64,000 bases of DNA from Dehalococcoidia bacterium (GTDB lineage Bacteria > Chloroflexota > Dehalococcoidia > Lucifugimonadales > UBA3495), in assembly GCA_965205495.1 (NCBI GenBank), contig CBDBHA010000002.1, positions 1,452,738 through 1,516,737 of the forward strand. The letters are read 5' to 3'. Every line of letters starts with the position of its first letter. The stretch's first letter is position 1. Below, one piece after another: positions 6,249 through 59,124 of this stretch. The notes under the pieces are model-generated. The model ran no database searches and was not told the origin of the DNA. It saw nothing but the letters and a program-made list of their open reading frames with translations. A program made the translations under genes and the position numbers.

Positions 6249-6325
6249 TGGTAGCGCGTGCGGGATTCGAACCCGCGATCTCCGCCTTGAGAGGGCGGTG
6301 TCCTGGGCCGCTAGACGAACGCGCC
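6249..6325 (-). tRNA. tRNA-Glu (anticodon CUC), CCA encoded
   Basis: The reverse complement reads GGCGCGTTCGTCTAGCGGCCCAGGACACCGCCCTCTCAAGGCGGAGATCGCGGGTTCGAATCCCGCACGCGCTACCA. Cloverleaf folded by eye: T arm GCGGG/CCCGC with a TTCGAAT loop, and anticodon loop CTCTCAA. Confidence 0.9.
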
Positions 6326-14206: not shown

Positions 14207-14265
14207 GAATTTTTAGCACTGGGACATTTTAGGACATCCTCGGACAATTGGGTTTGGGGACAAGG
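14207..14265 (+). repeat. Phased GGGAC/GGACA triplet element, copy A1
   Basis: The sequence is gaatttttagcactGGGACattttaGGACAtcctcGGACAattgg. The pentamer recurs at 10-11 bp spacing. Homologous copies are at 46825, 53064 and 53511. Confidence 0.6.
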
Positions 14266-14508
14266 GTAGGGATTTATGGCAGTGTGGAATTGAAGGGTTG
14301 CACTTCTCTAGCATGACCAACTGGCCTCGGAGTCGGCAAGAGGCGGTTGTCAGCAGGGCGGAACCTTTCGATTGTTCCTTTCGGAGTTCTTGGATTGGGC
14401 ATTGTTCTCAGGGCGGCGGGAACCGGAGGAAGCCGGGATTTTGCGACGGGGGTGGTTCGACGGGCTAACCATGAACTGGGGATTTCTGGGTTCGGGGGCA
14501 AGGGCAGG

Positions 14509-14550
14509 GATTTTTAGATTCCTCACTCCGTTCGGAATGAAATGACAGGT
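14509..14550 (+). repeat. Hairpin repeat family 2 (TTTAGA-ATTCC...GGAAT-TGACAGG)
   Basis: The sequence is gatttttagATTCCtcactccgttcGGAATgaaatgacagg. It matches copies at 15421, 47262, 18072 and 59083. Confidence 0.7.
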
Positions 14551-14579
14551 GGAAGGGCCGGAACGACGGGTGGGCGGGG

Positions 14580-14894
14580 TCAAAACGCGGGGTCCACTGG
14601 GGGGAAGGACAGGAGACTTCTCAAGAGGCGTTGGACGGCGGGGACTTCCATGTCCGCCAGGCAGCGGTTCAAGTAGCGGAAGACCGCGGTGAAGCTGGGC
14701 AAGGGGAAACCGGCCTTGACGACTTTTGGCATGAAGGCGGGGAGGGGTTTTTGTTTGATTTGAGCGCAGGTCCACTCGCCGCAAAAGGCGTGGGCCTGGC
14801 GGTCCAGGTTGACCTGGACGAGGGCCTGGGCCATTTTGCGCTCCAAGGAGCAGATTCGGGACTTTATGGAACGGATTTGGGAAGAAAGGTTCAT
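14580..14894 (-). CDS. Hypothetical 104-aa protein, paralog of 53126..53446
   Basis: It aligns by eye at about one-third identity with the 106-aa ORF at 53126..53446. The shared core is C-x-EW-x2-AQ-x3-KPLP ... F-x2-KV-x3-GF-x3-SFT-x2-F-x-YL-x2-C. Both sit in the same position relative to a conserved ~50-nt element. No family recognised. Confidence 0.55.
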   Translation of the reverse strand: MNLSSQIRSIKSRICSLERKMAQALVQVNLDRQAHAFCGEWTCAQIKQKPLPAFMPKVVKAGFPLPSFTAVFRYLNRCLADMEVPAVQRLLRSLLSFPPVDPAF

Positions 14895-14916
14895 GGTTTT
14901 GGTCCATCTCTTGGGG

Positions 14917-14975
14917 AGATTTTGTTCTGGGAAAAGGGGTGAGCCTCTTGGGGAGTGCTGGGATGCTGGGGATAG
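14917..14975 (+). repeat. Phased GGGA(C) element, degenerate copy A2
   Basis: The sequence is gagattttgttctGGGAAaaggGGTGAgcc...ctGGGATgctGGGGAtag. It lies between small ORF A and conserved element A, positionally equivalent to copy C2. Confidence 0.35.
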
Positions 14976-15030
14976 AAAATTTTTATTGGTCCAAATCGGC
15001 TCATTTTTGGGTTGGGCAGGGGTTGGGGGT

Positions 15031-15099
15031 ATGTCCAGTAATAGTTATGGTAGAGAGTCGTCACCGGAACTGGCAAGGGGGAAGTGTCAGTGATTTTTT
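15031..15099. repeat. Conserved ~50-nt element, copy A (core 15045..15093)
   Basis: The core is ttatggtagagagtcgtcaccggaactggcaagggggaagtgtcagtga. By eye it matches copy B at 47/49 and copy C at 45/49. On the minus strand it reads TTGCCA-18-TACCAT. Confidence 0.8.
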
Positions 15100-15120
15100 G
15101 TTGGGGGTTGGGAGTTCGGT

Positions 15121-15195
15121 GCGGCCGGCCTTTGGTCCTTCGACGGGGCGCAGGGCGATCCTTCGACGGAGCTGAGGACGAACGGGCTGGGTGTT
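15121..15195 (+). repeat. Hairpin repeat family 1 (CCTTCGACGGGGCTCAGGACGAACGG type), two partial units
   Basis: The sequence is ccttcgacggggcgcagggcgatccttcgacggagctgaggacgaacgggctgg. It belongs to the same family as the arrays at 52896-53052, 53704-53900 and 56913-56962. Confidence 0.7.
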
Positions 15196-15420
15196 TCGTT
15201 GGCTTGGGAGAGGTCCATTGACGGGGTTTAGGATGGCCCTTCGGGGGGCTTAGGGCGAGCGGGCGGGATGGTTTTCGGGGTTGGGTTGTCGGTGGCAAGG
15301 GTTTGGGATGGGGTTCGGGGCTTTTCGACTATTTCTTTGGGATTTTTGGAGCTCGCCGTTGTTCACGTCGCGGCGGGAACCCAAGAATGTCAGGATTTCG
15401 CAAAGGGGAGAAGGGCGAGG

Positions 15421-15455
15421 ATTTTTTGATTCCTCACCCCGTTCGGAATGACAGG
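15421..15455 (+). repeat. Hairpin repeat family 2
   Basis: The sequence is attttttgATTCCtcaccccgttcGGAATgacagg. Confidence 0.7.
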
Positions 15456-15695
15456 TTGAAGGGCCGGTATGACAAAGGAGCGACTAATACCGGGGAAACA
15501 TGTTGGGGTTCCTTTGTTTGGAAGGCGTTGGTTGGGGTGATCCAGGATAAGAGGCGGGCTATCGACGTAACTGTTCAGACTTGGGTGGATCTGCCGACTA
15601 TTCGGCCTATGGTGAAGGGGCAACCAAGCACGGAATTTCCACTGCAACCCGTTTCCATACCCGTAAACGTGAACAGTTACCTATTAACAAATTTG

Positions 15696-15724
15696 TTGCT
15701 GATACAGGGTTGATAGTGTATACT
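15696..15724 (+). promoter_or_regulatory. Candidate sigma70 promoter TTGCTG-17-TATACT
   Basis: Hexamers at 15696-15701 and 15719-15724 are separated by a 17-nt spacer. It lies about 180 nt upstream of the dppB-like GTG start. Confidence 0.45.
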
Positions 15725-15903
15725 CCCGCAAAATTCGCTACGGGCCGGATTGCGCCTTCCCGGGCGCTATCCGGGCTACGGTCAACAGCGACCATCACAC
15801 CGGCGGTTTGGGAACGATAGGAAAGACTTATTCAGGTTGCCAGCCGGTGAACTTCTTGAAATCCACGACGCATTCTTAAAAACATCCGTCTGAGGGGATT
15901 CCT

Positions 15904-44281: not shown

Positions 44282-44378
44282 GGGAGTGGATGGGGCCCGG
44301 TGGCTCTTGCGGACTTCAAATCCGTTATGCCTCGTGACGAGCGGGGTAGGTGGGTTCGACTCCCTCGCACTCCCGCCA
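44282..44378 (+). tRNA. selC: tRNA-Sec-like (anticodon UCA), 97 nt, CCA encoded
   Basis: The sequence is GGGAGTGGATGGGGCCCGGTGGCTCTTGCGGACTTCAAATCCGTTATGCCTCGTGACGAGCGGGGTAGGTGGGTTCGACTCCCTCGCACTCCCGCCA. It has a 6-bp D stem with a CGGT loop, anticodon loop CTTCAAA, a long variable arm, a GGTTCGACTCC T loop, and discriminator G + CCA. The layout parallels E. coli selC as I recall it. By eye, the 8th acceptor pair and one T-stem pair are mismatched. Confidence 0.75.
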
Positions 44379-44774: not shown

Positions 44775-46412
44775 TTAGAACTGGGAGCGGCGGGCTTCCA
44801 GGTTGGAGTGGATGTCCAACAGGACGGTGCGGCCTTCCGAGTTGAGTTGGCGAGCGCGTTCCAAAGCCGGAGCGATTTCGCCGGGCTGTGTGACGGTAAT
44901 GCCCACCGCGCCCATACCCTCGGCGATCTTGGCGTAGTCGCCGGTCATGCGGGTGGCGCCGTAAAGCTCGTTGGCTACGGGGTAGCCGCCGGGGTAGGTG
45001 GCCATGCCGCCGTTGTTGAGTACGATGGTGGTGATGGGGGCGCCGGCCCGCACCGAGGTCTCAATGTCCAGGCCGGACATTCCGAACGCGCCGTCGCCCA
45101 TGAAGTTGAGGCAGAACTTGTCCGGTTGGGCCAATTTGGCGCCGATCATCAGGGGGATGCCGTAGCCAAGGTGGGTGGTCTTGCCCCAGCCGATGTAGCT
45201 GTGGGGAATGGTGGCGCGGAAGAAGGGCATGATGGTGTCGCGGGGAGCGCCGGCATCGTGGGTGACGATGGAGTTTTCCTTGTCGATGTTGCGTTCCATC
45301 TCGCCAATGACCCGGTAGGTATTGATGGGAACGTCTTCGGAGTGGAGGATGTCGTGCCACTCGCCCATCCAGGCATCGCGCATGTTGGCAATTTCCTGGG
45401 CGACGGCGGTCTGACCCTTCCGGCCTTTTCCGCCGATTTGAGCCTTGACCTCATCGACCAAGGCGGCGAGGGTGAGTTTAGCGTCACCCGGAAGCCCGAC
45501 GTCCACCGAGAAATCCTTGTTTATGTCCTCGATGGTCTCGACGTTGTGGATGATGACCTTACCGCCTGGGATGGGTTGGCCGTAGCCGGTGCGGGTCATG
45601 CTGGAACCGACGGCAAAGAGAACGTCAGACTCCTGGAGCCAGGTCCGGGCGGGTAAGGAGGTCGAGGCGCTGCCGGAACCGAGGGCCAAGGGGTGGCGTT
45701 CGTCAAAGGAGGACTTGCCGGGCATGGTGCAGTAGACCGGAATCTCGGTCAGTTCGGCCAACTCGGTAAGTTCCGGGGAGGCTTCGGCGAAAAGGACACC
45801 CATACCGGACCAGATTACGGGTTTTTTGGCGTTGAGAAGGAGCGCGGCGGCGTCCTTAACGTCGCTGGGGGCGGGGCCTTGGGGGGCACGCTTGGGGGGC
45901 TGGTAGTTGAGGTCGGCTTCGTTGACCTCCATGGTTCCGACGTCGGCCGGGATTTCAACGATGACCGGGCCTGGGCGGCCGTTGCGGAGGGCGTGGAAGG
46001 CCCGGCGCATGACGGCGGAGACCTGTTGCGGCTGAGTGATGACCTCGCCGCACTTGGAAACGGTGGCGTAGGTGCGGGTGGGGGAGAAGTTGGGTTTCAC
46101 GGCGTATTGGCTGAGGGCGGGGCCGCCGGGGAGGTAGAGGATGGGGATGTTGTCACTGTAAGCCTGGGCCAAGCCGCCCATGGAGTTTTCAGAACCGGGG
46201 CCGCCCTGGGTGATGGTTACGCCAAACTTCTTGCGGTTATGGAGGCGGGAGTAGCCATCGGCGGCCATGAGGGCACCGCGTTCCTGCCGGAACATGATGG
46301 TGCGGATGCCTTCCTTGGCGGCGGCTTCGATGAGTTGATTAGAGGGGAAACAGGAGACCCATTCCACGCCTTCAGTCTTCAAGATTCGGGCGACGGCTTC
46401 CATTACATTCAT
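44775..46412 (-). CDS. ThDP-dependent enzyme, acetolactate synthase-like (paralog 4)
   Basis: Start set to MNVMEAVARIL (ATG 46412). The upstream part of track ORF 44775..46526 is not family-like. The ThDP motif is GDGAFGMSGLDIETSV...NNGG. The start is uncertain (weak RBS). Confidence 0.8.
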   Translation of the reverse strand: MNVMEAVARILKTEGVEWVSCFPSNQLIEAAAKEGIRTIMFRQERGALMAADGYSRLHNRKKFGVTITQGGPGSENSMGGLAQAYSDNIPILYLPGGPALSQYAVKPNFSPTRTYATVSKCGEVITQPQQVSAVMRRAFHALRNGRPGPVIVEIPADVGTMEVNEADLNYQPPKRAPQGPAPSDVKDAAALLLNAKKPVIWSGMGVLFAEASPELTELAELTEIPVYCTMPGKSSFDERHPLALGSGSASTSLPARTWLQESDVLFAVGSSMTRTGYGQPIPGGKVIIHNVETIEDINKDFSVDVGLPGDAKLTLAALVDEVKAQIGGKGRKGQTAVAQEIANMRDAWMGEWHDILHSEDVPINTYRVIGEMERNIDKENSIVTHDAGAPRDTIMPFFRATIPHSYIGWGKTTHLGYGIPLMIGAKLAQPDKFCLNFMGDGAFGMSGLDIETSVRAGAPITTIVLNNGGMATYPGGYPVANELYGATRMTGDYAKIAEGMGAVGITVTQPGEIAPALERARQLNSEGRTVLLDIHSNLEARRSQF

Positions 46413-46674
46413 GGCAAACACCAGCTTTTTTTGGGATTGGGCCGAGGAATTTCCGGGCCTTTCCAAGGAAGGAAGGCGGGGTTCCTCGAACAACGGCATA
46501 CTAACGCCGGAGGCAGGAAAAGGCAAGGTTTAAGAACCTTTGGGGCAGGGCAAACGCGTCTTAAATTTCAACCCGCCATACAAGCCGAAATCGCCGGAAA
46601 ACCCCGATGATTCCCGCGAAAGGAGCAATGCACACTGTCTTGCATCGGCAAATTCGTCCTTGTCCGCGACTTCT

Positions 46675-46730
46675 GGATTCCCGCCTGCGCGGGAAAGACG
46701 GGTGTGCGCGGGAATTGCGGGTGAATGAAC
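46675..46730 (+). repeat. Hairpin repeat family 2, variant (TTCCCGC...GCGGGAA)
   Basis: The sequence is ggaTTCCCGCctgcGCGGGAAagacgggtgtgcgcgggaattgcgggtgaatga. Confidence 0.55.
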
Positions 46731-46824
46731 TTCGGGGCTATATGACGCGATTGCCCTGCTCTCCTGGGGTGGCATTGCTGGATTTGGGCGGGCGTCTGCC
46801 GGCGGTTCGGCGGGCCCGGGTTCG

Positions 46825-46880
46825 GAAATTTTTGAATGCTGGGGCTTTCCGGGACATTGTGGGACGTTTGCTTCTTCGGG
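46825..46880 (+). repeat. Phased GGGAC triplet element, copy B1
   Basis: The sequence is gaaatttttgaatgctGGGGCtttccGGGACattgtGGGACgtttg, with 10-bp phasing. Confidence 0.6.
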
Positions 46881-46950
46881 AGGGTCTTGGTTTTGGATTT
46901 TGTGTTGGTTGAGCCGCGTGGGTCTGGGGGAAAATTGGGGGAATGTCTCA

Positions 46951-47005
46951 AGATTTTTGCCTTTTTATGGAGTTTTGGGGCATTTCGGTTTGGGAAGGTC
47001 CCGTG
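46951..47005 (+). repeat. Phased GGG(G/A)C element, degenerate copy B2
   Basis: The sequence is agatttttgcctttttatggagttttGGGGCatttcggtttGGGAAggtc. Confidence 0.35.
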
Positions 47006-47039
47006 GCTGGATTCTTGGGCCGCAATCGGGCGTTGGGTT

Positions 47040-47108
47040 ATGTCCGGTAGATATTATGGTAGAGAGTCGTCACCGGAACTGGCAAGGGGGAAATGTCAGT
47101 GGTTTTCT
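47040..47108. repeat. Conserved ~50-nt element, copy B (core 47054..47102)
   Basis: The core is ttatggtagagagtcgtcaccggaactggcaagggggaaatgtcagtgg, matching copy A at 47/49 by eye. No intact small ORF accompanies this copy. Confidence 0.8.
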
Positions 47109-47261
47109 TTGGCGGGGCGGTTGGTTTTGAGAGCCGGTGGGCTTGGGATGGCCGCATCGGGGGACCTTAGAAGTAGCTTGACATGAAGGGGATGGGCGGT
47201 CTGGGCCTTTTATATGGGGAGCTGGCGGCGACTAGTCCGGGGCAAACGGGCTGGCGGCGGT

Positions 47262-47340
47262 GGATTTTAGATTCCTCCCTACGGTTCGGAATGACAGGTG
47301 GGGGGGTTCGGAATGACAGGTGGGGGGGTTCGGGATAACC
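47262..47340 (+). repeat. Hairpin repeat family 2 with internal tandem duplication
   Basis: The sequence is ggattttagATTCCtccctacggttcGGAATgacaggtgggggg, followed by a second gttcggaatgacaggtgggggg unit. Confidence 0.7.
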
Positions 47341-51128: not shown

Positions 51129-51152
51129 GGTGGCTGGGAAGGCGCTCTCGAT

Positions 51153-51187
51153 GATCCTTTGACAAGCTAAGGACGAACGGGTTTGGT
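51153..51187 (+). repeat. Hairpin repeat family 1, single unit
   Basis: The sequence is gatcctttgacaagctaaggacgaacgggtttgg. Confidence 0.6.
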
Positions 51188-52852: not shown

Positions 52853-52895
52853 GGCTCCAGAAGGTGATTATACACCGGAGGATTGGGTGGGGGTT

Positions 52896-53052
52896 TATGC
52901 GACCGTCCGTTGGCCTTTCAACGGAGTTCAGGATGATCCTTCAACAGGCTCAGGACGAGCGGACCTGGGTGTTTAGTGCGGGGGACCGTCCGTTGGCCCT
53001 TCGACAAGCTCAGGACGATCCTTCGACGGGGCTCAGGACGAGCGGACTGAGG
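52896..53052 (+). repeat. Hairpin repeat family 1, array of about 3 units
   Basis: Repeated gaccGTCCGTTggcc(c/t)ttc(g/a)ac(g/a)...gctcaggacga(a/g)cGGAC units. Each unit contains a GTCCGTT...AACGGAC-type inverted repeat. Confidence 0.75.
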
Positions 53053-53063
53053 GTAGGGTGCGG

Positions 53064-53125
53064 GAGATTTTTAAGGTGTTGGGACTTTTGGGGACATCCT
53101 GGGACATTGTTCGGGTTGGGTGGGG
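53064..53125 (+). repeat. Phased GGGAC triplet element, copy C1
   Basis: The sequence is gagatttttaaggtgttGGGACttttgGGGACatcctGGGACattgttcgg, with exact 10-bp phasing. It abuts the stop of small ORF C. Confidence 0.65.
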
Positions 53126-53446
53126 TTAGGAGAAACAGGGGGATTGACGCCAGGGCAGTAGGGCGTCTAGGAGCAACTTGTGGTCGGGCTCCTTTTTGCG
53201 GCGGCGGCAGTAGTCCAGGTAGCCGAAGGCGCCGGTGAAGGAGAGGTAGTGGAAGCCGGAGTCGGCCACCTTTCGGATGAAGTTGTGGGGGTCGGGGAGG
53301 GGCTTGTTCTGAGATTGGGCGTCGGCCCATTCCTCGCAGAGTTGGTTTGCCTCACGGCCGACGAAATACTCGGTGTAGGGGCGGTGGAGTTTGCGTTTCA
53401 GGGCGCGGACTCGGTTGGCTAGGCTGGAGAGACTGGTTGATCCCAT
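53126..53446 (-). CDS. Hypothetical 106-aa protein, paralog of 14580..14894
   Basis: GGAGGAA lies about 12 nt before the ATG. It is about one-third identical by eye to the 104-aa ORF at 14580..14894 and has the same position and orientation relative to the conserved ~50-nt element. Confidence 0.6.
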   Translation of the reverse strand: MGSTSLSSLANRVRALKRKLHRPYTEYFVGREANQLCEEWADAQSQNKPLPDPHNFIRKVADSGFHYLSFTGAFGYLDYCRRRKKEPDHKLLLDALLPWRQSPCFS

Positions 53447-53510
53447 GATTTTGGAAGTTCCTCCGGGTTTTGGATTAAGGTTTTATAGGGGTTTGGATGG
53501 ATGGGACAGG

Positions 53511-53575
53511 TGATATTTGTTTGATGCTGGGACATTTTGGGGCTTTTTAGGACATGGGGTTGGTTGTCTGGGCCA
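53511..53575 (+). repeat. Phased GGGAC element, copy C2
   Basis: The sequence is tgatatttgtttgatgctGGGACattttGGGGCtttttaGGACAtgggg. It lies between small ORF C and conserved element C. Confidence 0.55.
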
Positions 53576-53610
53576 GTGGGTTCGGGGGTTGGAATTTTGG
53601 GGGCTGGGGT

Positions 53611-53687
53611 AAGGTCTATCTACAGTTATGTTAGAGAGTTGTCACCGGAAGTGGCAAGGGGTAAGTGTCAGTGATTTGGGGGGTGGT
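53611..53687. repeat. Conserved ~50-nt element, copy C (core 53626..53674)
   Basis: The core is ttatgttagagagttgtcaccggaagtggcaaggggtaagtgtcagtga, matching copy A at 45/49 by eye. On the minus strand it reads TTGCCA-18-TAACAT. Confidence 0.8.
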
Positions 53688-53703
53688 TCAGCGGGCTCAA
53701 CAC

Positions 53704-53900
53704 GAGCAGGGGGTGTTTTGTGCGACCGTCCGTTGGCCCTTCGACGGGGCTCAGGACGAACGGACTGGGTGTAGCCGGGGTTGGGGGTGGTTCGGCGGGG
53801 CTCAACACGATACTTCGACATGCTCAGGACGAGCAGGGGGTGTTTTATGCGACCGTCCGTTGGCCCTTCGACGGGGCTCAGGACGAACGGACTGGGTGTT
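53704..53900 (+). repeat. Hairpin repeat family 1, array of about 3 units
   Basis: Two near-identical units (gcgaccgtccgttggcccttcgacggggctcaggacgaacggactgggtgt) flank a diverged unit. Confidence 0.8.
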
Positions 53901-54105
53901 AGGACTGGTTCGACGGGCTTATCGTGAATCGGGGTGGGACTCACCACGAACGGGGGGTTAGACCGCGGATCAGGTTTTCATGCCCAAGAATACGATAATC
54001 GAAAGGGCCTGAGCGCGTTGGGGGTTATGTGTCCATTTTGGTTGGGCTCTGATAAAATCGGGCCCAGTTTAGGCTGGTAGTCCGGAGCCGCAGGGAGGAA
54101 TCACC

Positions 54106-55437
54106 GTGCCGTCCAAAGAAGAGTTGAAACGCCGCGTATTCCAGGAAATTGATGCCAGGGCCGACGAGATTATCAACTTGTCGAAAGAGATTTTGGGGCA
54201 TCCGGAGCCGGGGTTTCGGGAGGTCAGGACGGCCCATTTGGTGGCGGGCAAGTTTGCCGAGTGGGGGGTACCCTTCCGTTCCGGGCTGGCGTTGACGGGA
54301 GTGCGGGGGGAATTGGTGGGGGGCAGCGCGGGACCGACCATGGCCCTTTTGGGCGAGTTGGACTCGTTGATTGTGAACGAGCATCCCTTCGCGGACCCCA
54401 ACACCGGGGCGGCCCACGCCTGCGGGCACCACTGCCAGATTGGGATGCTGATGGGGGCGACGCTGGGGTTGATGCAGCCGGAAGTGTTGTCGGAGTTGAG
54501 CGGACGATTGGCGTTGGTGGCGGTGCCGGCGGAGGAATACATTGAGATTGAGTACCGGGACGGGCTGCGGCGGGACGGGAAGATTGAGTTTTTAGGGGGC
54601 AAGCCGGAGCTGATACGGTTGGGGGAATTTGACGACGTTGACTTGTCGATGATGGTGCATACCACCAGCAATCCGGAGGAGGGGCAGCTCTGTCTCAGCG
54701 GGACCAACAATGGGACGCTGGCGAAGAAAATCCAGTTTGTCGGGAAGGGTTCCCACGCCGGAGGAGCGCCGCACCTGGGGATCAACGCATTGAACGCGGC
54801 GTCGCTGGCGTTGGCCGCGATTCATTACAACCGGGAGACGTTCAAGGACGAAGATACGGTGCGGGTGCATCCCATCATCACCAAGGGAGGCGAGGCGGTG
54901 AGCGCGGTGCCGGCGGATGTGCGGATGGAGACGTTTGTGCGGGGTAAGACGATAGAAGCGATAATGGACGCCAACGTTAAGGTGGACCGGGCGCTGCGGG
55001 CGGGAGCGATGGCGGTGGGGGCGAAGGTTAACATCCAGACCATTCCAGGGTACCTGCCGCTTAAGCAGGACGAGCAGATGAACGGGGTCTTCCGGCCCAA
55101 CGCCGCGGCGCTGGTGGGAGAGGACAACGTGGGGCGGGTGAACCACCGGACCGGATCGACGGACATGGGTGACATCAGCCACCTGATGCCGGCCATCCAC
55201 CCCTACGTGGGGGGGGCGACCGGGTTGGGGCACGGAGCCAACTACGTCGTTGAGGACTATAACCTGGCGGTGGTGGTGGCGGCGAAGGCCATGGCGGCGA
55301 CGGTGGTGGACCTGTTGGCGGACGGAGCGGCGGTGGCGGGGAAGATCGTGGCGGACCACCGGCCGGAAATGACGAGCCCAGAATATCTCAAGTTCATGCG
55401 GGACTTGGCCAAGGAAGAAACGTTTGACGCAGCGTAA
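54106..55437 (+). CDS. M20-family amidohydrolase (paralog A)
   Basis: GTG start, 443 aa. HPEPGFRE, AHACGHH and GSHAGGAPHLGINA motifs. Confidence 0.85.
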   Translation: MPSKEELKRRVFQEIDARADEIINLSKEILGHPEPGFREVRTAHLVAGKFAEWGVPFRSGLALTGVRGELVGGSAGPTMALLGELDSLIVNEHPFADPNTGAAHACGHHCQIGMLMGATLGLMQPEVLSELSGRLALVAVPAEEYIEIEYRDGLRRDGKIEFLGGKPELIRLGEFDDVDLSMMVHTTSNPEEGQLCLSGTNNGTLAKKIQFVGKGSHAGGAPHLGINALNAASLALAAIHYNRETFKDEDTVRVHPIITKGGEAVSAVPADVRMETFVRGKTIEAIMDANVKVDRALRAGAMAVGAKVNIQTIPGYLPLKQDEQMNGVFRPNAAALVGEDNVGRVNHRTGSTDMGDISHLMPAIHPYVGGATGLGHGANYVVEDYNLAVVVAAKAMAATVVDLLADGAAVAGKIVADHRPEMTSPEYLKFMRDLAKEETFDAA

Positions 55438-56785
55438 CAGGTTTTCCAAAGAGGAACTGAAGCAAAAGGCCTGCGCGGCCATTGAAAGGCGCAAGAAGGA
55501 ATTCATTGGGCTGGCGCAGGAGGTGCTATCCCACCCGGAGCCGGGGTTCAGCGAGGTTAGGACGGCGGCTTTGGTGGCGCGGAAGTTTGACGAGATGGGG
55601 GTAACCCACCGGGACCAACTGGCGTTGACCGGGATCAAGGGGAGAGTCGCGGGCGGCGGGGGAGAGGGACCCAGGGTGGCCATCATTGGGGAATTGGACT
55701 CGTTGATCGTGAACCAGCACCCCTTTGCAGACCCGGACACGGGAGCGGCGCACGCCTGCGGTCACCATTGCCAGATTGGGATGATGGTGGGGGCGTTGTC
55801 GGGGCTGATGGAGCCGGAGGTATTGAGCCAGCTATGCGGGGAGATTGTGCCTTTTGCGGTGCCGGCGGAGGAGTTCATACAGGTTGGGAAGCGGTTGGAG
55901 CTTCGGGAGGACAACAAGATCGAATTCATGGGCGGGAAGCAGGAGCTAATCCGCCTGGGGGAATTTGACGACGTAGACATGGCGATGATGTGCCACACGG
56001 CCAGCGACATGGGGGACCGGCAGTTTGCGGTGGGAGGCACCAGCAATGGGCACATCGTCAAGTACGTGCAGTTCCTGGGGCGAGGGTCTCACGCGGGCAG
56101 CGCGCCGCATTTGGGAATCAATGCGTTGAACGCCGCTTCGTTCGCGCTACAGGCGATCAACGCCAACCGGGAGGTCTTCAAGGACGAAGACACGGTGCGG
56201 ATTCACGGGATAATGACCAAGGGCGGGGAGGCGGTGAACGCGGTGCCGGCGGACGTGCGGCTGGAATGGCGGGTGCGGTCGGGGAGTCCGCAAGCGGTGG
56301 TGGAGAACAGCGGCATCGTGGACCGGTGTTTCAAAGCTGGGGCGTTGGCGGTGGGGGCACAGGTGAAGATTACCAACATTCCGGGCTATTTGCCGATGCG
56401 CCACAACAGCGGGATCCAAGAGCTGTTCCAGATGAACGCCAACAGCCTGGTAGGAGAGTCGCGGGTGATGGTGATGCCGGCGCGGCGGAACCGGGGCGGG
56501 TCGACGGACATGGGGGACCTGAGCCAGTTGATGCCGGCCTGCCACCCGTACACCTCCGGGGCGGTGGGACCGGGGCACAGCGACGAGTACGTCATCACCG
56601 ACTACGAGTCGGCGGTGGTGAATCCGGCGAAGATAATGGCGATGGTGGCGATCGACCTACTGGCCGGAGGAGGGGACCGGGCCAAGGAATTGGTGCGGAA
56701 CCACCGTCCGGCGATGAGGAAAGAGGCGTACCTGCAGTTCCAGCGGGAGCGGGCGCAGGTGGTGGAGTTTGACGGCAGGGGTTAG
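55424..56785 (+). CDS. M20-family amidohydrolase (paralog B, tandem duplicate)
   Basis: It carries the same motifs (HPEPGFSE, AHACGHH, GSHAGSAPHLGINA) and is collinear with paralog A. The TTG start overlaps A by 14 nt and is uncertain. Confidence 0.8.
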   Translation: MTQRNRFSKEELKQKACAAIERRKKEFIGLAQEVLSHPEPGFSEVRTAALVARKFDEMGVTHRDQLALTGIKGRVAGGGGEGPRVAIIGELDSLIVNQHPFADPDTGAAHACGHHCQIGMMVGALSGLMEPEVLSQLCGEIVPFAVPAEEFIQVGKRLELREDNKIEFMGGKQELIRLGEFDDVDMAMMCHTASDMGDRQFAVGGTSNGHIVKYVQFLGRGSHAGSAPHLGINALNAASFALQAINANREVFKDEDTVRIHGIMTKGGEAVNAVPADVRLEWRVRSGSPQAVVENSGIVDRCFKAGALAVGAQVKITNIPGYLPMRHNSGIQELFQMNANSLVGESRVMVMPARRNRGGSTDMGDLSQLMPACHPYTSGAVGPGHSDEYVITDYESAVVNPAKIMAMVAIDLLAGGGDRAKELVRNHRPAMRKEAYLQFQRERAQVVEFDGRG

Positions 56786-56912
56786 ACCGCGGGATTAACG
56801 GTTGAAGCAAAGAGAAAGGGCCGACCGTAGGGTCCGCTTTTTTGTTGGGGGTGGTTTGGGGGAGTTAGCGGGGCAGGGGGATGGGGTTGGGGTTGGCACT
56901 GGGGGACGGAGT

Positions 56913-56962
56913 GGCGGCCGTCCGTGCATCCTTCGACGGGGCTCAGGACGAACGGACTGGAG
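56913..56962 (+). repeat. Hairpin repeat family 1, single unit
   Basis: The sequence is gcggccgtccgtgcatccttcgacggggctcaggacgaacggactgg. Confidence 0.7.
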
Positions 56963-57052
56963 GGTGGTCGGGGGTTAACAGGTTTCGGACTGGAGGGTGG
57001 TGGTTCGGGTTGCCCCGCAACGGACTGGTGGGGTTGGGGTGACCGTTAGGGG

Positions 57053-58969: not shown

Positions 58970-59082
58970 CAGGGTCTTTCAATTTCCAGGTAGTGGCCGG
59001 TTCGTGTTGAGGGGCAAGCTGGCAGCCCCGGGATAATCGTAGCCAAGGCTGGAATCCGGGGTTGGGGTTAGTGTTTGGCAGG

Positions 59083-59124
59083 GAGTTTTAGACCCCTCGC
59101 TACGCTCGGGGTGACAGAGGGGGG
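59083..59124 (+). repeat. Hairpin repeat family 2, variant (ACCCC...GGGGT stem)
   Basis: The sequence is gagttttagACCCCtcgctacgctcGGGGTgacagagggggg. It lies between the two 40-nt direct repeats. Confidence 0.7.

Follow-up and report, generated by a model that had tools for sequence, protein, structure and literature searches.

What keeps a stretch of about 50 nt nearly unchanged in three otherwise divergent intergenic islands of one bacterial genome? The window analyzed here, a 64,000-nt stretch of a Dehalococcoidia contig, contains a 49-nt core at positions 15045-15093 (copy A) that recurs at 47054-47102 with 2 mismatches (copy B) and, by direct reading, at 53626-53674 with 4 mismatches (copy C), in agreement with the 47/49 and 45/49 matches counted by eye in an earlier note on this DNA. 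All three copies share one orientation, that of the + strand as written. A core 21-mer matched all three sites and nothing else in the window, no match to the core appeared in 100 dinucleotide-preserving shuffles (0 expected), and a repeat search of the window grouped the three copies as one family (D4). For the 51-nt block that extends from -55 to -5 relative to a predicted minus-strand transcription start, the identities were 49/51 between A and B, 47/51 between A and C and 45/51 between B and C, with z-scores of 25-37 relative to shuffles. In the 145 nt after the block, corresponding to the predicted leaders, comparison of the three copies gave no alignment above shuffled sequence (z <= 1.3), as expected from the rapidly diverging flanks described earlier. 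Further downstream, the ORF zone aligned solely between A and C (132/198), and that of copy B gave z = 1-2 against the others. We concluded that the repeat is real and strongly constrained, and that the element is of an ordinary kind.

That kind is, in our judgment, probably a sigma-70-type promoter on the minus strand, combined with a probable operator, of a multi-copy family of small proteins of ~105 aa. The sigma-70-type core would fire on the minus strand from putative starts near 15040, 47049 and 53621, and the element would drive lineage-specific multi-copy genes for ~105-aa helical proteins. On this strand the element is laid out as AAAT-CACTGACAY-TTn-CCCC-TTGCCA-(18 nt: sTTCCGGTGACrACTCTC)-TAnCAT-AA, with the A-tract at about -57 to -53, CACTGACAY at -52 to -44, TTGCCA at -36 to -31 and TAnCAT at -12 to -7. 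At each of the three sites, a promoter consensus scan returned, on the minus strand, TTGCCA-18-TACCAT or TTGCCA-18-TAACAT, that is, the same hexamers that had been read by eye (TACCAT in A and B, TAACAT in C), and TTGCCA-18-TAnCAT was the sole promoter-like site in islands B and C. For the composite pattern CCTTGCCA-N16-19-TANCAT, 3 occurrences were counted against 0.01 expected.

The promoter block of copy A (-55 to -5), placed by repeat comparison, promoter scan and alignment, occupies 15045-15095 on the minus strand, with the -10 box TACCAT at 15047-15052, the -35 box TTGCCA at 15071-15076 and TGACA at 15085-15089; it also spans the 18-nt spacer, the CCCC and the start of the A-tract. The blocks of copy B (47054-47104; -10 TACCAT 47056-47061, -35 TTGCCA 47080-47085, TGACA 47094-47098) and copy C (53626-53676; -10 TAACAT 53628-53633, -35 TTGCCA 53652-53657, TGACA 53666-53670) lie on the same strand. 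Assuming a start 7 nt after the -10 box, the predicted minus-strand 5' leaders would be 146 nt long for A (14895-15040, with the putative start at ~15040; C/A-rich, 12% G) and 175 nt long for C (53447-53621; 9% G), and these lengths fall within the 140-180 nt previously given as the distance to the small ORFs at 14894 and 53446. Leader C carries an ATGTCC-type repeat motif and a GGAGG Shine-Dalgarno sequence at 53460-53464, 13 nt before the ATG.

The small ORFs behind copies A and C are both on the minus strand: ORF A (14580-14894) encodes 104 aa of an uncharacterised helical protein family, and ORF C (53126-53446) encodes 106 aa that were modeled by AF2 as four helices (pLDDT 87). Proteins A and C are 36-37% identical over 95 aa, close to the one-third identity estimated before, and their elements are 92% identical; for A and the distant locus L006, the proteins are 47-51% and the elements 62% identical. 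A profile search of 1.84 billion representatives yielded 291 clusters (50% identity) at E <= 1e-3 with a core of ~100 aa, where longer members were read-through products without extra domains. The small protein had no match in Pfam, PHROG, NCBIfam or PADLOC, a sequence profile search of the PDB found nothing, and its AF2 model had no fold match in the PDB and BFVD despite being confident. The small-protein family is therefore one that is real and without annotation. In the orthologues of copy A at L003, L004 and L005, the ATG of the window's ORF A is replaced by ATC and gene callers start at Met21, and the protein P0005 has an insertion and an altered C-terminus. Judging from these sequences, decay of the A-type gene may be under way in certain lineages, with its promoter remaining 90-92% identical.

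Relatives of the element were sought in genome and metagenome collections. Among 185,579 species-representative genomes, the exact 21-mer had 0 matches and a pattern scan for the small protein found no relatives, so the clade is absent from this collection. The single metagenome match to the 21-mer (L001) was rejected as chance, being inside an unrelated low-GC coding region. A scan of viral contigs for the element gave 4 matches, which were also attributed to chance because they lacked both a -10 box and a family ORF, and the corresponding scan for the small protein found none. Relatives were obtained instead by protein searches with ORFs A and C against ENA metagenome assemblies, from which the contigs were fetched and searched with an nhmmer profile of the element. 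Such a profile search for further copies had been proposed in the earlier note, and it showed the element to recur before the small ORF, or before an operon containing it, in the metagenome relatives. The element was present in 12/12 loci of the window's clade with upstream DNA: L002 (twice), L003-L005, L007-L010 and L012-L014. One 537-nt contig was the sole exception among all relatives with upstream DNA. At the clade loci the element is on the strand of the ORF, 66-196 nt upstream of the small-ORF start codon. The genes on its far side vary by locus and include Dpp permeases, AXE1 esterases with a luciferase-like oxygenase, DUF1800/DUF1501 proteins, a PIN protein and transposases, so that what accompanies the element at each locus is the small ORF rather than the + strand operon.

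Three of these loci document rearrangement around a unit. The identical 107-aa protein P0016 is encoded between different flanking genes in L007, L008 and L009, and L009 corresponds to L008 on the left (98.5% identity) and to L007 on the right (99.9%), with a junction ~27 nt upstream of the start codon. This junction identifies the units as substrates of homologous recombination that reshuffles neighbouring operons. At L008:4925-4965, and also in L009 and L010, ATAGATAGACGTAACCCCAAA is tandemly duplicated right after the -10 box; the leader of these three loci is shortened to 66 nt.

More distant members of the family, and one locus in a genome of the window's own clade (L018), showed a second gene arrangement. 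At four loci (L006, L016, L015 and L018) the small gene is the second in a bicistronic operon whose first gene encodes a helix-turn-helix (HTH) protein of 134-145 aa, truncated in L015. The two genes are joined by a stop-start overlap in L006, L015 and L018 and separated by a 28-nt gap in L016. In these operons the element precedes the HTH gene, 55-100 nt upstream. L016 retains 22 nt (CACTGACACTTCCCCCTTGCCA) identical to copy A with TACCAT exactly 18 nt further on, L006 and L015 retain CTGACAC, CCCTTsCCA and TAnnnT at equal spacing, and L018, which shares its 1.27-Mb contig with the clade locus L013, retains nearly the entire clade sequence with a 1-nt insertion. By eye, 9/18 spacer bases match in L016, 9/18 in L015 and 8/18 in L006. 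The operons span L018:5001-5749, L006:5604-6297 and L016:2568-3333, and that of L018 is ~2.5 kb upstream of dnaA. As an evolutionary sequence of events, we propose that in the ancestral state the promoter drove a bicistron with the gene of a small-terminase-like HTH protein in first and that of the small protein in second position, and that in the clade of the window solo units of promoter, G-poor leader and small gene would have spread into divergent intergenic regions beside catabolic operons.

In a 15-sequence alignment, TGACA (-49 to -45), CCC.T.CCA in the -35 region, two spacer positions, A-11 and T-7 were invariant and T-12 was nearly so. Constraint in the -10 hexamer of sigma-70-type promoters is expected to be strongest at A-11 and T-7. 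Judged as a sigma-70 promoter, the element has a -35 hexamer TTGCCA that matches at 5/6 positions, a -10 hexamer that reads TACCAT, TAACAT or TATCAT with A-11 and T-7 unchanged, and a spacer whose length is constant within the 16-19 bp range (18 bp in 15/15 sequences), and it lies co-oriented upstream of its gene at every locus having upstream DNA. We counted against this reading the moderate hexamer match (9/12), the 18-nt spacer that exceeds the 17-nt optimum, and the retention of the element at copy B where the ORF is missing. On the whole, the minus-strand promoter with an operator-like upstream block, which the earlier note had put forward as one of two readings, was supported: the element was upstream of and co-oriented with a small ORF or HTH operon in 15 sequences, and the invariant -35 region, A-11, T-7, 18-nt spacing and upstream TGACA are all as that reading predicts.

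Within the clade, the conserved stretch reaches from -55 to -5, and conservation is lost abruptly at -4 and beyond as well as on the upstream side of -57. The entire 51 nt are conserved, spacer included; RNA polymerase alone would need less, so that either a second function or concerted evolution must contribute. Only ~5 sites vary in the clade (-44, -41, -30, -19 and -10), each between 2-3 states and independently of the type of protein encoded. This toggling suggests saturation of the free sites and selection on the other ~45. That the spacer and upstream block are fixed throughout the clade points to a common trans-acting factor or, again, to concerted evolution. Element identity does not follow protein identity, a pattern for which co-evolution across the lineage or gene conversion would account just as simple purifying selection would.

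Concerted evolution could by itself account for the near-identity of the copies if the block were a tract homogenised by gene conversion or recombination between paralogous units, in which case promoter function would need the hexamers only. The decoupling of element from protein identity within the clade would be expected under such homogenisation, as would the sequence of L002a, a mosaic of A-type and C-type states, and the L009 junction demonstrates that recombination between units occurs. However, similarity peaks inside a wider, graded homology without sharp bounds, few sites toggle and ~45 never change in 12 clade sequences from several genomes, the 22-nt upstream and -35 block is identical in the distant L016, for which conversion with the window copies is impossible, and copy B is 49/51 identical with nothing alignable around it. 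We thus regard homogenisation as quite unlikely to be the main cause of the conservation. The earlier note had itself cautioned that the copies might be conversion tracts inside a longer repeat. A and C do belong to a longer, diverged gene unit, which the note had not recognised; the element is the conservation peak of that unit and has no sharp tract edges.

Under the promoter-operator reading, the TGACA block and the clade spacer TCCGGTGACGAC would form the operator for one common trans-acting factor. The operon's own HTH protein would be the obvious candidate for this factor, and all copies would then be co-regulated.

Copy B bears on this possibility. No small-family ORF was detectable at copy B by tblastn and local alignment, and only a trace of the ORF 5' end is visible downstream, with its ATG changed to AAG; the region downstream of promoter B (46527-47049, minus strand) is annotated here as containing a decayed small ORF. 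The earlier remark that the element can exist alone thus holds for this copy. The next minus-strand gene encodes a TPP-dependent enzyme (44775-46526), a paralogue of which is also encoded downstream of ORF A. Copy B may have been kept after the loss of its ORF either by serving the downstream TPP-enzyme gene or by remaining a factor-binding site. Together with the clade-wide fixation of the spacer, this orphan copy suggests a site bound by something besides RNA polymerase.

The HTH protein itself offers a different account, in which the element is primarily a recognition site for a small-terminase-like HTH oligomer (pac-like, for recombination or for antiterminator loading) and the likeness to promoter hexamers is secondary. 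The AF2 model of the protein (pLDDT 75) consists of a three-helix HTH at the N-terminus and two long helices behind it. Foldseek matched it weakly to 2ao9, a B. cereus phage protein (E 0.02), and to the small terminases of Sf6 and NV1; small terminases were also its weak PHROG matches (E 2e-4), and an HTH-domain relative is encoded directly upstream of a terminase large subunit on the viral contig L019. The position of the element directly upstream of the HTH gene in L006, L016 and L018 and the clade-specific conservation of the spacer fit a protein site within a promoter, and a weak sequence match to the AlpA antiterminator (E 0.16-0.39, not significant) points in the same direction. Against this account, none of the similarity scores reaches significance, neither a terminase large subunit gene nor other phage genes were found beside the chromosomal operons L006, L016 and L018, and RNA polymerase, unlike a pac site, accounts for the invariant A-11 and T-7 and for the fixed 18-nt spacing. 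We therefore hold this account to be decidedly unlikely. No homologue of the HTH protein was found within the 64-kb window, and a literature search for HTH_Tnp_1_2 found no papers.

We also considered readings in which the element acts as RNA. A minus-strand transcribed 5'-UTR element, for example a protein-binding leader with the true promoter further upstream, would be compatible with the long leader that always follows the element and with the ~50 contiguous nt conserved in the clade. Yet folding of the C-rich minus-strand RNA revealed practically no structure (-7 to -11 kcal/mol, z about -0.4 to -0.9), its consensus fold reaches -0.8 kcal/mol with no covariation, the DNA upstream of -57 is unconserved and made up of REP-like repeats, and the distant copies keep exactly the hexamers and no contiguous RNA motif, all of which makes such an element highly improbable.

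The second reading of the earlier note, a plus-strand RNA or leader in front of dppBC, lutABC and the M20 pair, was not supported. Its naming of the + strand operons was sound: they encode Dpp/Opp-type ABC permeases, LutABC-like CCG and LUD proteins and two M20 peptidases. A plus-strand small RNA, leader or terminator for these operons could draw on a 5-7 bp stem (CTGGCA/TGTCAG) that is followed by a T-run in copy A. The 5-bp stem, however, is invariant and hence uninformative, with a consensus fold of -1.8 kcal/mol, and C, L016, L015 and L006 have no T-run. Terminator scans found none at any of the three copies, no -35 partner accompanies the plus-strand -10-like box, no + strand gene ends upstream of the element, and the + strand neighbours are unrelated between loci. 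Searches of Rfam found nothing in 14400-15900 at E <= 1 and, at gathering thresholds over the whole window, tRNA and tRNA-Sec only: a selenocysteine tRNA gene at 44282-44374 (+; RF01852, 66 bits) and an ordinary tRNA at 6252-6325 (-). For both strands, single-sequence folds were no better than those of shuffles (z -0.9 to +0.4), and RNAalifold gave the two consensus energies above with 0 compensatory pairs. A plus-strand function is accordingly extremely improbable.

Several further candidates were rejected. The end of a MITE or IS would carry a terminal inverted repeat or an inverted partner, neither of which was found; the copies have a single orientation relative to the ORF, and transposases are present at some loci only and in varying positions. 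The earlier statement that no known RNA family or mobile-element end is recognizable in the element is in line with these searches. Coding sequence was excluded by a 1-nt deletion in L002a, a 1-nt insertion in L018 and the diverging flanks. By eye on the plus strand, a sigma-54 promoter (TGGCA..N..TGC) was dismissed for its absent -12 GC, and an ECF promoter (GGAAC-N16-GTC) for a GGAAC that is not conserved in L006, L015 and L016.

We then compared the element with described systems. It resembles a sigma-70 promoter with an UP-like A-tract and an operator in its TTGCCA (5/6), 18-nt spacer, TAnCAT and A-tract at about -55, in a footprint of -55 to -5 that ends at the predicted start, and in being always co-oriented upstream of a gene; it differs in that CACTGACAY and, clade-wide, the spacer are also fixed, and in that copy B has no family gene behind it. 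The closest described situation, by analogy only, is the 'upstream homology box' of the Borrelia burgdorferi erp genes, in which divergent paralogues with a conserved promoter/operator are co-expressed under the control of common DNA-binding regulators and recombination acts on the conserved 5' region (PMC10016077). Near-identical promoter/operator regions with strongly diverged coding sequences and a recombinant junction (L009) are found here too, whereas the organism and proteins are unrelated and the units are chromosomal and beside catabolic operons rather than on prophage plasmids.

A type II toxin-antitoxin operon would similarly have an HTH gene first and a small gene second (as in L006, L015, L016 and L018), a close or overlapping stop-start and a conserved promoter. 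In contrast, the solo small genes without an HTH partner are unexpected for a toxin; neither the HTH nor the small protein matched a toxin, antitoxin or defence family in Pfam, NCBIfam, PHROG or PADLOC, where weak HTH matches were the only ones. The REP/BIME, ERIC and Neisseria Correia elements are also short intergenic repeats, and the element lies among genuine REP-like palindromes in the window, but it has no palindrome, terminal inverted repeat or structure of its own, and it keeps a fixed orientation and is tied to one gene family. The element does not belong to any Rfam family, to the REP/MITE class or to a recognised toxin-antitoxin system.

Q- and AlpA-type antiterminators have binding elements embedded in the promoter. 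The present element is comparable in its protein-site-like sequence in or next to the promoter spacer, in the long leader and in an HTH protein that is faintly AlpA-like, but the resemblance is not significant (E 0.16-0.39), and no pause-inducing element or terminator was identified. The boldest reading would make the element the chromosomal loading site of a domesticated small-terminase-like HTH oligomer, whose gene and the founding copy of the small gene lie together ~2.5 kb from dnaA in L018. At many loci this oligomer would coordinate either transcription, in the manner of Q/AlpA, or DNA transactions such as pac-like packaging or recombination, which we consider unlikely. If it were true, the dispersed solo copies on the C-rich, putatively lagging strand beside catabolic operons, one of them kept without its ORF, would be more than promoters of small genes.

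As a promoter-operator, the element provides an uncultured lineage with a 51-nt cis-element with informative positions, the gene family that it drives and a candidate trans-factor that makes the predicted regulon directly testable. This amounts to a useful annotation that leaves the understanding of promoters unchanged and adds no new mechanism.

The window around the units has several features of its own. Its + strand contains 37% G and 24% C, with a GC skew of +0.15 to +0.28 per 4-kb bin whichever the gene direction. The three small-ORF units are on the C-rich strand, as are all clade loci from other contigs, where the skew is -0.15 to -0.19 when the ORF is on the + strand. From this base composition, a lagging-strand orientation bias of the small-gene family is possible.

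The intergenic islands are filled by a REP-like palindromic family (CCTTCGACGGGGCTCAGGACGAACGG and variants) at 15110-15260, 51135-51178, 52872-53064, 53695-53909 and 56887-56974; at A and C its repeats directly adjoin the upstream side of the element. A second REP-like family (GATTCCTCACnCCGTTCGGAATGA) was found at 14494-14540, 15405-15451, 47256-47330, where 47283-47330 is a tandem duplication, and 59068-59114. The sequences of both families are distinct from the element. A GGGACAT-type motif (on the minus strand ATGTCC..N..ATGTCCCAG) occurs at 14219-14246, 46839-46866, 53079-53106 and 53527-53554, being present in C-type leaders and again downstream of ORFs A and C. With 1 mismatch allowed, AATGTCCCAG had 10 occurrences against 4 expected, and its three exact copies all adjoin units. 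The GGGACAT-type motif may be a second protein-binding motif. The two M20 peptidase genes at 54106-55437 and 55424-56785 are tandem paralogues with 69-78% DNA identity over several segments at an offset of 1336 nt.
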